Positions 1,152 through 48,519 of a stretch of 64,000 nucleotides of DNA are shown here, one piece after another (positions within the stretch are counted from its first letter, which is position 1; each line of letters begins with the position of its first letter). This stretch comes from a virus (Duplodnaviria > Heunggongvirae > Uroviricota > Caudoviricetes): IMG/VR virus record IMGVR_UViG_2740892427_000001; one strand, 5' to 3'. The notes under the pieces are model-generated. The model was not told the DNA's origin. It did no database searches and saw only the letters and a program-made list of their open reading frames with translations. Both the position numbers and the translations under genes were made by a program.

Positions 1152-1532
1152 CTAATTGCCGGATAAAATGGGGTGAGGTGCTTGCCAGTAGGCTCCACCG
1201 GTCCATGTGAACCCCATGCGAATAAGAGTGTTTATTGCGGCTTTGGTAGACTCCGATTCGACACTGGCTTTTCGAAACTCTTGAACCTCTTTCGCCAACT
1301 TGTATGTAATTGTGCAGGGGACGATTGCAGCCCAGCCTTTCTCATGACTGTTAATGACCATCTGGATGTGACCATCCAGAATAGGTTGATTAGGCATGTT
1401 ATTGAAAATGTCTGCCTGTTTTTGAATGTGAAGAAAAAGCCTTGCCAGCTCCATTTGCTCACTACGAGACAAGGGATTATCAAGAGGGCTTTTTGCAAAA
1501 GCGGCTATACGCTGTGCGTCAATGCCAAACAT
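1152..1532 (-). CDS. hypothetical protein (126 aa)
   Basis: ORF, ATGA overlap with upstream gene. Confidence 0.5.
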   Translation of the reverse strand: MFGIDAQRIAAFAKSPLDNPLSRSEQMELARLFLHIQKQADIFNNMPNQPILDGHIQMVINSHEKGWAAIVPCTITYKLAKEVQEFRKASVESESTKAAINTLIRMGFTWTGGAYWQAPHPILSGN

Positions 1533-4985: not shown

Positions 4986-5039
4986 TTTTCACCCTTGTTT
5001 TTATCAACACAATATGGCCGATCATGCGGCCATATCAGA

Positions 5040-5609
5040 TCAATTAGAGCTTTGAAAGACTTTGTGTGGTTGTGTTGCGAGGTTATGTCGATGGCTTAAC
5101 TCACGCATCATGTCTTCAAGGCGACTCTTTGTGTCGTCGAGTTGGTCGGCCATTGCTCCCAAAAGCTGACGAACGGCCATCGGATCATCGCTGTTTAGTG
5201 ATGGCATTTTATAACCCGCCTGAGAAGACATAAGATTGAACGCAGACATCAACATCGTTAGAGAGGATTTAAGCCCAGCAATTTCACGATCTTTGCTGGC
5301 AATAATCGCCTCACTCTTGTTAGTGTCATCAGTTCGTTGAGTCTCGCTCACCATATCCAAAGTCGCCTGCAACTTATCAGCGCGCTCTTTTTCAGCAAGA
5401 TAATGAACACCGAAATGATGTGCTAAAGCTACAACCTGAGTTGGCTCTTCAAAGGTGGACTCAAAATTAAGTGCTGTAACCACTCTCTCAAATATGGAAA
5501 CGTCTTCTATTCCTCGAAGAATGGCTAACATTTTGACCAGTTCATTAGCATCCATTTCTTCGAATAAGGCGTTTTGTTCATCAGCTATCGCTTTGCATTT
5601 CTTGCACAT
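5040..5609 (-). CDS. hypothetical protein (189 aa)
   Basis: ORF with AGGAAAAACAC-ATG initiation region and AAACAAGTTGTTT palindrome upstream. Confidence 0.6.
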   Translation of the reverse strand: MCKKCKAIADEQNALFEEMDANELVKMLAILRGIEDVSIFERVVTALNFESTFEEPTQVVALAHHFGVHYLAEKERADKLQATLDMVSETQRTDDTNKSEAIIASKDREIAGLKSSLTMLMSAFNLMSSQAGYKMPSLNSDDPMAVRQLLGAMADQLDDTKSRLEDMMRELSHRHNLATQPHKVFQSSN

Positions 5610-5906
5610 GTGTTTTTCCTAATGCTTAAACAAGTTGTTTTCTTATTGGCTTTATTGTGATGTGGCATAAAAGGGGAGCAAGCTAAACGTAAAGGTGCAA
5701 ACTCTCTATTTCGGTCAACGAAACACAAGGGCCATTTGGCCCTTGTCATTAACACGTTGCTTTACGGACTAGCGGATAAGCGAAGTAGATCGCCAAACCA
5801 ATGAGGACGCCATCAGAAATGACAGACATCATCTTTCCCGTAAAATCCACCAACACCGCCATCACCAGAAGAGCAATGACGATCACAAGCCGGAATCTCT
5901 CAAGCA

Positions 5907-6332
5907 TTAGAGATAAGCATCCAGTGACAACTGAAGCGCCTGGGCGATCTTTTTCAGTGCCTGCTCTTCTTGTTCACCAATGCCATCCTGATCGGCAATA
6001 TCAAGGCACAGACACAGAACATCGACCGCCTCTGGAGTACCCGCAATATCAGAAAGCTCACGAATAGCCTGTGCATTAGCAGAACGAGGGGACGCTTCGT
6101 AACGAGCACGGATATTGGCGCTCATTTGGGCAATTTCACCAGCAAACGGAGAAAACGCAGGCAGAGCTGCAATTGTCTTCTCAAGAATGGCAATTTCTTT
6201 TGCGTCACATGTGCCGTCGGCATAGGAGATCATGTACGCGCCCCACACGGTGGCCTCAACCGCATCACGGTTCTCCATTTTTTTGACTTCGATAACTGCT
6301 TTACGAGTTTTCTTTTTGAAGAAACCTAACAT
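5907..6332 (-). CDS. TerB-like protein (tellurite-resistance TerB domain family)
   Basis: duplicated ...ADGxxDxxE... pattern (YADGTCDAKEIAILEK; IADQDGIGEQEEQALKKIAQALQL) typical of TerB. Confidence 0.5.
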   Translation of the reverse strand: MLGFFKKKTRKAVIEVKKMENRDAVEATVWGAYMISYADGTCDAKEIAILEKTIAALPAFSPFAGEIAQMSANIRARYEASPRSANAQAIRELSDIAGTPEAVDVLCLCLDIADQDGIGEQEEQALKKIAQALQLSLDAYL

Positions 6333-6425
6333 GTGTTTTCCTTTTGTTATTTGTCAAAACAAGTTGTTTTATAGTTTCATAAATTGCTTACGCAAAGATG
6401 GTCAATGCATATGCACTAACAGCCG

Positions 6426-6614
6426 TCAGAAATAACCAAGTACCGAACCGACTGGAAAAACAAAAATCCCAACTACACGAGCCAAGGTCATGCCAGCCTG
6501 AAACTGGAGATCGCCAGAGCAAACAAGTTTTATAATGTTCGATACCCAACCGGCGGCCATGAGGGCAAGAATTGCCAGCCAAATTTTTCCAAAGTGATTT
6601 GAAAACCAGTTCAT
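6426..6614 (-). CDS. small hydrophobic membrane protein (62 aa)
   Basis: two predicted TM segments; alternative overlapping frame 6388..6618 looks less protein-like. Confidence 0.4.
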   Translation of the reverse strand: MNWFSNHFGKIWLAILALMAAGWVSNIIKLVCSGDLQFQAGMTLARVVGIFVFPVGSVLGYF

Positions 6615-6623
6615 ACAACCGCC

Positions 6624-7118
6624 TTAGTCACAGCATGATCCTGAGTAACCGGATGAACTTGAGGTATCGCATCCACCGTCATCCCATCCAGAGTGACAGG
6701 ACGCTCTACTGGAGTGGTGGTAATTGTCGTCGACGGAGGTGTGGTGATGGATGAACCCGGCATCAAAAGGCTCTGGCCGGCTGGAACGGCTACCGTCGCC
6801 AGTGAAACTATAATGAGAACGTAGGCCATTGGTTTCAGCCTCTTTCTTTGAAAATTTTCCATTCGAACTGTCCTTGTTGTTTTTCTCCTTCACTAAAGGC
6901 CGTGTACTTTTCGCTTCGCGTGAAGAACCAGAGGCAACAATCGCCCCCACGTTCGCAACAACTGACGCTTGATTATCTAAACGTTCATTCAGCAACCGAA
7001 CGGTAGTCTCTAGTTCATCAAGACGTGACATAACACGACCGCTAAACAATTCGGCCAAAATTTGACGTAAAGAACGAGGACGTTTAGTTGCAGAAGTGAA
7101 ATAGGTTTGACGTGCCAT
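6624..7118 (-). CDS. hypothetical protein; C-terminal half overlaps another frame (6611..6862) that encodes a signal-peptide-bearing Thr/Pro-rich product
   Basis: N-terminal ~80 aa look protein-like, C-terminal part is low complexity; the true gene structure here is unresolved. Confidence 0.3.
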   Translation of the reverse strand: MARQTYFTSATKRPRSLRQILAELFSGRVMSRLDELETTVRLLNERLDNQASVVANVGAIVASGSSREAKSTRPLVKEKNNKDSSNGKFSKKEAETNGLRSHYSFTGDGSRSSRPEPFDAGFIHHHTSVDDNYHHSSRASCHSGWDDGGCDTSSSSGYSGSCCD

Positions 7119-7147
7119 GTGGACTCCATCCAGTGTCAGAAAGAGTT

Positions 7148-7169
7148 GCGGCTGGCGATTGCCAGCCGC
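7148..7169. other. stem-loop GCGGCTGGCgattGCCAGCCGC
   Basis: 9-bp perfect stem upstream of gene 6624..7118. Confidence 0.45.
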
Positions 7170-7263
7170 CTTTCTCGTTCCATCCTGGAACTGTGTCTTA
7201 CCGACACATTGTCATCCTGACGCTGATAAGATACATGATTTAAAATGATAGGTAAACACTTAC

Positions 7264-7857
7264 TTACTGCTTGTTATAAACAAAACCAATATCTTTCTTG
7301 TGAGGCATATCTGCTGCTGAAAAAGCTGCGATCTTCGCGAGTCGATCACATATTTCATTTTCACGATGCCCGGCGTGACCTTTAACCCACTTCCAGCGAA
7401 CATTATGTCGACTTGCGGCCTCATCCAGACGTTTCCACAGATCAACATTCTTTACCGGTTTTTTATCAGAAGTCATCCATCCATTACGTTTCCACCATTT
7501 CATCCACTGTGTCATGCCGTTTTTCAGATACTGGCTATCAGAGTACAAAATAACGTTGCATGGATATTTCAAACGCTCCAGCCCGATAAGTGCGCCCATC
7601 ATCTCCATGCGGTTATTGGTGGTGCTATGAAAACCATCTGAGAACTCGCGTTCCTCACCACGATACTGGAGAACGATACCGTAACCGCCCGGGCCACCCG
7701 GATTTTTAAGGCAAGAGCCATCACTAAAGATTTTCACGGTTTTGAGCTGGGGATTGAACTCTACGACAGGCGTTGTGGGATTGGTGCGGGGAGAATTTTT
7801 GTTTTTGGCTTTTTTGCGAGTTTTTGCTTGCGATCGGGCTGGTGTCTTCGTCGTCAT
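7264..7857 (-). CDS. rnhA: ribonuclease HI with Lys-rich N-terminal extension
   Basis: [16 protein letters not shown]...MEMMGAL...YSDSQYL...[18 protein letters not shown] match RNase H catalytic core; start moved to ATG 7857 with AGGAG 7 nt upstream. Confidence 0.85.
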
Positions 7858-8439
7858 ATAAACTCCTGAATCAAGCGCCGCGCCGATTTTTTCCTCGCGC
7901 GTGCGCACACGCGTGCGTGTTAATAATTATTAAAATAAACAAATTACTTCCCAGAACAGGTTTTTATAAACCTGAACTGAACGAACGAAGTGAGTGAAGT
8001 TCACCTCGAACGAAGTGAGAGGTTGTCTTTTCAGGTAATACTCTCCCAGGGAGGTGAGTATAAAATTCCTCACCAACCTGGTCGTTTCATAACCTGAAAA
8101 GCTATGGTCTAAGTCTACTGCCAGCTTAGACTTGGGAAGTTATGGATGACAGCACCCCAGAACCGAGATCTTCCCACACTTTATGAAGGGGAGTACTGGA
8201 TTCAACCTCTCGAAACACCCCAGACTCGACAATCATAAAGTGACCCTTGTCTCTGCTCACTTTGGTTCCCCCTTCCCCGACACCTATACGGCACCGGTTC
8301 TACGCTGGTAGTGAGCTTTTTTAAACCTGACGCCAGTGACGCTTACCCCCACCCATCAGGTCGAGCCTCCAGTCTACGACTGGAAACTATCATATCTTAG
8401 CACTTACAATTCACTTTATGAATAGTTTGTACTTATCTA

Positions 8440-36964: not shown

Positions 36965-37148
36965 AGCATCGTTGGTTTGCAAGACAGACCTTATGTAAGC
37001 AGTTTTAGTAAAGCAGTCTCAGTTCAGTGTTATCTTCTGATTTCCCTTCTTCGTGAGTCTCCTCCTTAAGTGCCTAAGTAAGTCCCAATCTATACAGATC
37101 AAATTCTCGCCGCACTATGTGGCTCACAAAATTAAGAAGGTAATATCT

Positions 37149-37364
37149 ATGTCTAATAAAATGACTGGTTTAGTAAAATGGTTTAACTCTGATAAAGGCT
37201 TTGGCTTTATTTCTCCTGCTGATGGCAGTAAAGATGTTTTTGTACATTTTTCGGCAATTCAGAGTAATAATTTCCGCACTTTGGAAGAAGGCCAGCAGGT
37301 CGAATTCTCTATCGAGAATGGTGCTAAAGGCCCAGCAGCAGCAAATGTCGTTGCTCTAAGCTGA
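37149..37364 (+). CDS. cspA: cold-shock protein, CspA family
   Basis: [23 protein letters not shown]...[10 protein letters not shown]...[20 protein letters not shown]: RNP1/RNP2 cold-shock-domain motifs; start set to internal ATG 37149. Confidence 0.9.
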
Positions 37365-37639
37365 TTCAACGCTGATGATCCTCATTTCTACAATAACGAA
37401 GACGGTGTAAGCCTGAGTGGATAGATTTGTAGGATTGTACAAGTTGAATAAATTAGCATGGTAAGGCCATGCTAATTAAATCGACACAACGGCCAGTTTA
37501 TTCCATAAAAGTGAATTGCCCATTGTGGCGAAATGCGGGGTTGCCGCATGAATAGTCAAAGGCAGAAGCTAACTGCCGGCATGGCAAAACAAAGTGCGTA
37601 AGAGGAGTGACTTCCTCAACAAGCGCCATAATTCTTTAT

Positions 37640-48272: not shown

Positions 48273-48348
48273 TGGTGCCGGTTAACGGGATCGAACCGCT
48301 GACATCCTGCTTACAAGGCAGACGCTCTACCAACTGAGCTAAACCGGC
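48273..48348 (-). tRNA. tRNA-Thr (anticodon UGU), encoded CCA
   Basis: GCCGGTTTAGCTCAGTTGGTAGAGC...CUUGUAA...GGTTCGATCCCGTTAACCGGCACCA. Confidence 0.8.
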
Positions 48349-48352
48349 AATT

Positions 48353-48439
48353 TGGTGGGGAGTGATGGAGTCGAACCACCCGAGTCGCAATGACAGTAGA
48401 TTTACAGTCTACCCCGCTGCCCCTACGGACTAACTCCCC
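48353..48439 (-). tRNA. tRNA-Tyr (anticodon GUA), long variable arm, encoded CCA
   Basis: anticodon arm GTAGACTGTAAATCTAC, T-loop GGTTCGACTCC, acceptor GGGGAGT/ACTCCCC. Confidence 0.8.
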
Positions 48440-48444
48440 TAAAT

Positions 48445-48519
48445 TGGCGATGGTGGGTGGATTCGAACCACCGACCAGTTGGTTAACAGCCAACTGCTCT
48501 ACCGCTGAGCTACACCATC
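48445..48519 (-). tRNA. tRNA-Asn (anticodon GUU), encoded CCA
   Basis: GATGGTGTAGCTCAGCGGTAGAGC...GTTGGCTGTTAACCAAC...GGTTCGAATCCACC. Confidence 0.8.

Follow-up and report, generated by a model that had tools for sequence, protein, structure and literature searches.

A TerB-DUF3927 accessory cassette beside a pair of overlapping genes in an SSU5-like phage-plasmid

What is a TerB-domain gene doing beside genes for small membrane and secreted-like proteins in the DNA of a tailed phage? The question is raised by positions 5,907 to 7,118 of a 64,000-nucleotide (nt) stretch of Caudoviricetes DNA (IMG/VR record IMGVR_UViG_2740892427_000001), the whole of which we call the window. An earlier reading of its letters, made without database searches and called here the sequence-only reading, had placed a TerB-domain protein before a 62-amino-acid (aa) protein with two transmembrane segments and a locus where two frames overlap, one of them encoding a signal-peptide-bearing, Thr/Pro-rich product, and had judged TerB unexpected in such a setting. 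We confirm the observation and support its interpretation in part: the TerB assignment is right, the suggested partners are wrong and the placement is not unexpected. All of the open reading frames (ORFs) that it listed exist, on the minus strand like every gene of the region (Table 1). We read the locus as two units, (A) an accessory cassette of two genes, tciA and tciB, that is shared with phage P1, and (B) a backbone module of three genes, here called L, S and the 62-aa gene, that is found only in SSU5-like elements. We put the probability of this two-part reading at roughly 0.6. Our confidence in the anatomical account of the locus is very high; the mechanistic account of tciAB is tentative, with the odds somewhat against it.

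The tciA-tciB cassette and its slot

Profile searches bear out the TerB assignment. TciA matches Pfam TerB (PF05099) over residues 33-136 with 31.5 bits, against a gathering cut-off of 24.4, and the PHROG family phrog_632 ("tellurite resistance") over its full length (E 5e-63). An AlphaFold2 model built with 25 homologues (predicted local distance difference test, pLDDT, 87; predicted template modelling score, pTM, 0.82) has six helices spanning residues 22-132, preceded by a disordered and strongly basic N-terminal tail (MLGFFKKKTRK...), and among solved structures only the TerB-like 2H5N and 2OU3 match it over nearly its full length. The link to these structures comes from fold comparison only, because sequence searches of solved structures with either the single sequence or a 25-sequence profile returned nothing meaningful. 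The TerB family is marked by a duplicated acidic D-G...D/E motif, one copy per half-domain; TciA carries YADGTCDAKE (37-46) and IADQDGIGEQEE (112-123) as candidate copies, and its D39, C42, E46, D111, D114 and G117 are invariant among the 25 homologues. We conclude that TciA is a cytoplasmic, TerB-fold member of the TerB family. It does not belong to a ter operon: terC, terD, terE and terZ are absent both from the neighbouring proteins, as judged by Pfam, and from the annotation of the 9 kb around the homologous locus of Escherichia phage Cyrano.

Directly downstream lies a gene that the sequence-only reading had overlooked. Its 52-aa product, TciB, matches Pfam DUF3927 with 48.3 bits (cut-off 25) as well as phrog_1470 ("TciB-like"), and its hydropathy predicts a two-helix membrane hairpin. 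Because the tciA stop overlaps the tciB start (TAATG), tciB is predicted to be translationally coupled to tciA. Three nt past the tciB stop begins a terminator-like hairpin, ACAAGGGCCAAATGGCCCTTGT GTTTCGTTGA, which would mark the end of the cassette transcript.

Both genes have counterparts in P1. TciA is 78.7% identical to P1 TciA over its full length (tblastn), and between TciB and its P1 counterpart identity is 39% and similarity 75% (E 8e-11). The third gene of the P1 set, tciC, is missing here, because the terminator directly follows tciB and P1 TciC gives only spurious short matches in a tblastn search of window positions 5000-6000. Positions 5000-8000 match phage Cyrano over their full length at 98.9% identity (megablast), and the Cyrano record already annotates a "P1 TciA-like protein" and a "P1 TciB-like protein"; the same search also matches other SSU5-like phage-plasmids in E. 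coli, Salmonella and Klebsiella. The window is itself an SSU5-like phage-plasmid. With an annotated P1 relative and TerB homologues in at least 100 phage records (tblastn) and 786 plasmid records, TerB is not out of place in such an element.

We compared what lies between the 62-aa gene and a downstream 189-aa gene in 12 SSU5-like relatives, and placed the cassette boundaries by pairwise blastn against an empty site (pEh22_1) and a site occupied by a Rha-type antirepressor gene (pHCM2). The slot holds tciA-tciB in this window, E. coli pMRY16-002_2, Cronobacter, Enterobacter ludwigii and Klebsiella, and the Rha-type gene in SSU5, pHCM2, E. coli CT29 and Enterobacter hormaechei (loci L004, L009, L011 and L012); it is empty in Enterobacter pEh22_1 and Citrobacter pRHB20-C15_2 (L013 and L019). 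Against the empty site, homology stops directly after the 62-aa stop codon and restarts near 5695, about 30 nt past the terminator hairpin. Whatever the slot holds, the 62-aa gene and the 189-aa gene flank it in all relatives examined. The slot is thus an accessory-gene exchange hotspot of SSU5-like phage-plasmids.

This arrangement also settles which neighbour belongs with TerB. The upstream genes are not its conserved partners, because L, S and the 62-aa gene stay in place where tciAB is swapped for the Rha gene or absent. The sequence-only reading was right to associate TerB with a small membrane protein, but that protein is TciB, not the 62-aa protein or the signal-peptide-bearing ORF; the 62-aa protein does have the two hydrophobic helices ascribed to it, but on the minus strand its gene lies upstream of the TerB gene, not after it. 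The 164-aa gene L occurs in 680 plasmid records and TciA at 90% identity or more in 425, which, the two lists being taken separately, gives a rough estimate of 60% for the SSU5-like elements that carry the cassette. In P1-like elements tciABC is variable, has been lost in about half of one subgroup and is of unclear function (PMC9603915), and it was non-essential in a CRISPR interference screen of P1 (PMC10695390); a review only suggests that it protects against tellurite or phages (PMC11652158).

The TerB-DUF3927 pair across phages

To follow the pair beyond P1, we sampled eight phage contexts and tested the gene directly downstream of each TerB homologue with the Pfam DUF3927 profile at its cut-off of 25 bits; tblastn with the 52-aa TciB, which returned only 9 records, was too insensitive for the purpose. 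A TciA orthologue is followed by a same-strand DUF3927 gene in seven of the eight: P1 (106 bits), the lambdoid phage JLK-2012 (72), Fostie (54), this window (48), the lytic N4-like phage FSL SP-058 (45), whose TerB is only 35% identical, Pseudomonas phage Nican01 (35), in which the match is to an unannotated 60-aa ORF, and an Erwinia jumbo phage that falls below the threshold (21 bits, E 3e-4). In the eighth, Vibrio phage MS02, an annotated TerC/Alx membrane protein lies upstream of TerB, and two of the three small downstream ORFs tested gave no DUF3927 match. In the database entry P0144 the two domains are joined in one polypeptide. The pair is thus a conserved two-gene unit of very different phages, well beyond P1, and phage TerB is consistently partnered with a membrane protein.

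Where the pair sits is informative about its use. It is present in strictly lytic phages; P1 tciAB lies downstream of the C1-operator-controlled ban promoters, according to the annotation of the record, and in JLK-2012 and Fostie the pair stands between Q and the lysis genes. Its persistence where lysogeny does not occur and its position in the P1 ban and lambdoid Q-lysis regions point to a use in lytic growth.

Two of these records merit a remark of their own. That of Nican01 (L024, PP179318.1) has a missed TciB-like gene at 1335-1517 (+), directly after the TerB gene, while in that of Vibrio phage vB_VpaP-MS02 (L025, OR102882.1) the TerC/Alx gene at 1-794 directly precedes the TerB gene at 898-1323, so that a TerC-TerB pair replaces TerB-DUF3927. 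In both P1 and JLK-2012, tciAB directly follows a tRNA-Asn/tRNA-Thr pair.

The overlapping genes L and S

Upstream of the slot, the sequence-only reading had noticed that two frames overlap, and both prove to be maintained. We compared eight lineages at 40-60% pairwise amino-acid identity (two E. coli types, SSU5, CT29, Cronobacter, E. ludwigii, Citrobacter and Klebsiella). L (158-179 aa) and S (83-92 aa) are open in all eight, with S always in the +1 frame relative to L and always stopping 13 nt past the L stop, where it overlaps the start of the 62-aa gene (ATGA or GTGA, 8/8). All eight also have a Shine-Dalgarno (SD)-like purine motif 7-10 nt before the ATG of S, even where the L residues encoded there differ. 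Over these 237-264 nt the remaining four frames are interrupted by 1-7 stops, one exception apart. The overlap of two open frames is no product of chance.

Substitution patterns point to selection on both frames. Pairwise differences at codon positions 1/2/3 amount to 0.36/0.24/0.52 in the non-overlapping part of L, 0.32/0.27/0.22 in its overlapping part and 0.25/0.21/0.35 in S, so that the N-terminal part of L and the S frame have the signature of coding sequence. Coding by L alone is impossible, because its third position is the least variable one in the overlap, and S is certainly under selection. With the S protein held constant, no more than 4-13% of synonymous reshuffles per lineage preserved an open L frame; the reverse shuffle, given L, leaves S open by chance in 10-70% and is hence uninformative. 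At conserved four-fold codons, synonymous differences amount to 0.49-0.76 in the N-terminal part of L, the 62-aa gene, the RNase H gene and the 189-aa gene, but to only 0.34 in S and 0.12 in the L overlap. Among columns whose residue is invariant across the eight lineages, synonymous variation is found in 79/90 of those in flanking genes, in 10/18 of those in S (Fisher P = 0.003) and in 3/11 of those in the L overlap (P = 4e-5); the lineages are near independent, with flanking synonymous sites close to saturation. Two frames that are both under selection are expected to suppress each other's synonymous change in this way, and L and S are most likely a case of true dual coding.

Three other accounts of the overlap have to be set against dual coding. 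That S alone is functional, and the C-terminal half of L a tolerated read-through tail without function, would agree with a codon-position signature that belongs to S and not to L in the overlap, with the low complexity of the tail and with database variants that fuse L to S without it. It would leave unexplained why L is open in 8/8 lineages at a chance of 0.04-0.13 each, why its stop keeps a fixed distance from that of S, why the C-terminal motif C-x-SGW(D/N)...(C/S)CD is kept in the most distant members (P0165 and P0167) and why S varies less at its synonymous sites than flanking genes do, and we consider it distinctly doubtful. The opposite account, that L alone is real and S a chance open frame, is the one implied by annotation of the Prokaryotic Genome Annotation Pipeline (PGAP)/RefSeq type, which calls L only and omits S, and the +1 frame is indeed often open in shuffles that preserve L; the drop in third-position variability from 0.52 in the N-terminal part of L to 0.22 in the overlap, the scarcity of synonymous change at invariant L columns and the protein-like layout, SD-like motif and conserved ATGA junction of S make it very improbable. 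Least credible of all is programmed ribosomal frameshifting to an L-S fusion protein. Fusion proteins do exist in databases, and one class arises at a TTTT run, but these rare variants join the frames at three unrelated positions in different lineages with no conserved slippery site, represent far less than 1% of members, can be put down to single-base indels and have to be squared with the conserved start and SD-like motif that S has of its own; we therefore rejected it. We retain dual coding of L and S.

The fusion variants comprise the proteins P0028-P0030, P0033, P0168 and P0171 and locus L015, and the window position concerned is about 6750-6756 (minus-strand CCTTTTGATGCC); they may be natural mutants or products of homopolymer errors in sequencing. 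Three mosaic relatives of L (P0024, P0027 and P0031) combine a CT29/SSU5-type N-terminal half with an E. coli-type C-terminal half, the junction lying at the start of the overlap, which suggests that the two halves of L recombine as separate units; recombination at this point complicates the comparison of rates between the halves. P0016, at first sight a distant relative of S, comes from a draft assembly and was rejected because a frameshift has combined the two frames in it.

The proteins themselves look as follows. Nothing in L resembles a transmembrane segment (17-residue hydropathy at most 1.03); a conserved, probably helical N-terminal part (RPRS-x-R-x-x-LAELFSGR...LEE) is followed by a C-terminal half that shares its DNA with S, has many His, Cys and Ser residues and ends in the motif given above. 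S is the Thr/Pro-rich product of the sequence-only reading: a basic N-region, hydrophobic residues 8-34, a Thr/Pro-rich linker and a conserved C-terminal LDGM-x-x-D-x-I make up a layout that fits a signal peptide or a signal anchor. The start of the two-helix 62-aa protein overlaps the S stop as ATGA in the window. An exhaustive HMMER search for the L family found 17 representative clusters among 1.84 billion proteins, all of them SSU5-like, and S is as restricted; neither a scan of genome contigs with the 164-aa protein nor one of viral contigs with the distant L member P0167 produced a confirmed relative. Aeromonas, Vibrio and Octadecabacter phages contain isolated, distant homologues of the 62-aa protein whose gene surroundings are uninformative. 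L, S and the 62-aa gene form a conserved backbone module, seemingly directed at the envelope, that is separate from tciAB and found only in SSU5-like elements.

Of the distant 62-aa homologues, those of Aeromonas phage AsC4_1 (L017) and Vibrio phage 1.177.O (L018) are about 40% identical and are isolated small genes of unrelated phages from marine and aquatic settings, the latter on the opposite strand within a head/neck block, a moron-like placement. A spanin (Rz/Rz1) reading of L/S was rejected: L has no N-terminal transmembrane helix, S has no cysteine in the window and so no lipobox, and neither matches a spanin PHROG or Pfam family.

Table 1. Features of the locus in order of transcription; positions are those of the window.
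Feature	Position	Strand	Remarks
RNase H gene	7908..7264	-	214 aa from GTG start (mechanical ORF list)
Hairpin between RNase H gene and gene L	7148..7169	both	terminator-like on both strands; perfect 9-bp stem, G+C-rich
Gene L (164-aa ORF)	6624..7118	-	phrog_10411
Gene S (83-aa ORF, inside L)	6611..6862	-	phrog_15659
62-aa two-helix protein gene	6426..6614	-	phrog_6006
Swappable tciA-tciB cassette	5696..6425	-	about 730 nt; pairwise blastn against empty and Rha sites
tciA (141 aa, TerB-like)	5907..6332	-	Pfam PF05099, phrog_632
tciB (52 aa, DUF3927)	5749..5907	-	Pfam DUF3927, phrog_1470 "TciB-like"
Terminator-like hairpin	5725..5746	-	9-bp stem, 6 G-C pairs, T-rich tail
189-aa backbone gene	5040..5609	-	phrog_5508; downstream border of the variable slot

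The hairpin between the RNase H gene and L may be the upstream edge of an L-S-62aa(-tciAB) transcription unit. The start codon of the RNase H gene is uncertain, the near-identical Cyrano record annotating 594 nt (197 aa). Elsewhere in the window, Rfam places three clustered tRNA genes at 48276-48519 (-), about 42 kb from tciAB, and gives a strong match to the cspA thermoregulator 5' untranslated region at 36971-37389 (+), where 187.6 bits compare with a gathering score of 78; a cspA-like cold-shock gene, preceded by its regulatory leader, thus seems to be present in the phage-plasmid.

Possible roles and comparison with known systems

From these features we infer an interaction of TciA with TciB, a membrane location, a time of expression and, with them, a phenotype of the following kind. 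TciB would insert in the inner membrane and recruit or anchor TciA on the cytoplasmic side, a role ascribed to TerC towards TerB in ter operons, and the basic tail of TciA would probably aid binding to acidic lipids. Together they would condition the membrane (its ion, proton-motive-force or stress state) for the benefit of the phage, mainly during lytic development, and would not constitute a tellurite-resistance determinant; a related possibility is that they counter host responses aimed at the membrane. In the literature, TerB is said to be associated with the membrane, and its suggested role in defence systems is membrane surveillance. The retention of the pair by lytic phages and its place in lytic-phase operons lead us to favour a role in maintaining a productive membrane state during phage development, and we rank protection of the lysogen second. 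In the backbone module, L would be cytoplasmic, S exported or membrane-anchored and the 62-aa protein an inner-membrane protein coupled to S.

Some results weigh against the two-part reading as it stands. A consensus scan of the coding strand upstream of tciA found no promoter; the searchable literature yielded no experiment on the function of tciA or tciB, a search for DUF3927 or TciB returning nothing relevant; an AlphaFold2 model of the P0144 fusion, taken as a proxy for TciA-TciB, gave no usable interface (pLDDT 63, pTM 0.37); and the L-S fusion variants do without the C-terminal half of L, so that this tail is perhaps dispensable, unless the variants are sequencing errors.

What else could tciAB be? 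The ter operons of IncHI2 plasmids are reported to give protection against tellurite, colicins and phages, and tciAB might likewise be a lysogenic-conversion or defence cassette, expressed by the resident plasmid-prophage and shielding its host from tellurite, pore-forming colicins or superinfecting phages. Its layout, an optional cassette in a variable slot with its own terminator, is moron-like, TerB domains occur in the validated systems Shango, Bunzi and Dionysus, and such a role has been proposed for tciABC in reviews (PMC11652158; PMC9603915). Strictly lytic phages, however, have no lysogen to protect and keep TerB-DUF3927 all the same, and the pair lies in a C1-repressed operon in P1 and in the Q-dependent late region of lambdoid phages. 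No PADLOC defence model, those of Shango and Bunzi included, matches TciA, TciB, the 62-aa protein, S or L at E <= 0.1, nor did an NCBIfam scan give a match; terC, D, E and Z are absent from the neighbourhood, and the promoter scan, too, counts against expression from a cassette of this kind. On balance we think this account unlikely. We consider it less likely still, and indeed quite improbable, that tciAB is an anti-defence device in which phage TerB would serve, by analogy, as a decoy or antagonist of TerB-based membrane surveillance or of pore-forming abortive infection (Abi) effectors. The pair is widespread in virulent and temperate phages, TerB domains are used by host defence systems and the slot is shared with an accessory gene of the Rha antirepressor type, all of which would suit it, but the argument is one of analogy, and TciA is a bare TerB fold with nothing more. 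Conditioning of the membrane for phage development thus remains the role that we prefer for tciAB. A bolder form of it probably claims too much: a pan-phage lytic TerB-DUF3927 module that would secure a productive membrane or blunt membrane-targeting Abi and surveillance defences, and would not confer tellurite or colicin resistance, beside an undescribed L/S/62-aa module in which a single piece of DNA would specify a cytoplasmic Cys/His-rich protein as well as an exported Thr/Pro-rich one, with coupling to a two-helix membrane protein.

What is new here is modest. The TerB part of the locus was already known as P1 tciAB, and our additions are the TerB-DUF3927 pair beyond P1 and an unannotated 83-aa gene that is very probably real alongside L; neither this pair nor L/S overturns current understanding. 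TerB is among the most widespread bacterial stress and defence domains and has recently been found in several anti-phage systems. A minimal, portable pair of TerB and a 52-aa hairpin offers a simple system for studying the action of TerB at the membrane, and suggests that the traditional label "tellurite/colicin resistance", borne by hundreds of phage and plasmid records, may mislead. The L/S overlap is a clean example of a coding gene omitted by standard annotation, in about 680 sequenced plasmids.

Taken together, our findings place the locus beside several known systems. The module of L, S and the 62-aa gene recalls lambda Rz/Rz1, in which a short gene for an exported, Pro/Thr-rich protein is likewise embedded, in the +1 frame, in a longer gene whose product is partly helical; here, in contrast, S extends 13 nt beyond the end of L and does not end inside it. 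With the TerB of terZABCDE operons, TciA shares the Pfam family, the helical fold, a similar size and the expectation of a membrane partner, but that partner is the multi-pass TerC in those operons and a 52-aa DUF3927 hairpin here, and TciA has no detectable sequence match to any solved TerB structure. Shango SngA, Bunzi BnzA and Dionysus DinB also set a TerB domain beside membrane proteins, and membrane surveillance has been proposed for them. They differ in having a helicase, ATPase or pore-forming-toxin partner that tciAB lacks, and tciAB is carried by phages, lytic ones included, and not in host defence islands. The last comparison is with P1 tciAB(C). There the genes follow tRNA genes within the C1-controlled ban operon, whereas in the window they occupy a slot after a 62-aa membrane-protein gene, far from tRNAs; the two sets share their gene order, consist of abutting or overlapping genes and are optional, variable modules of their phage-plasmid families.

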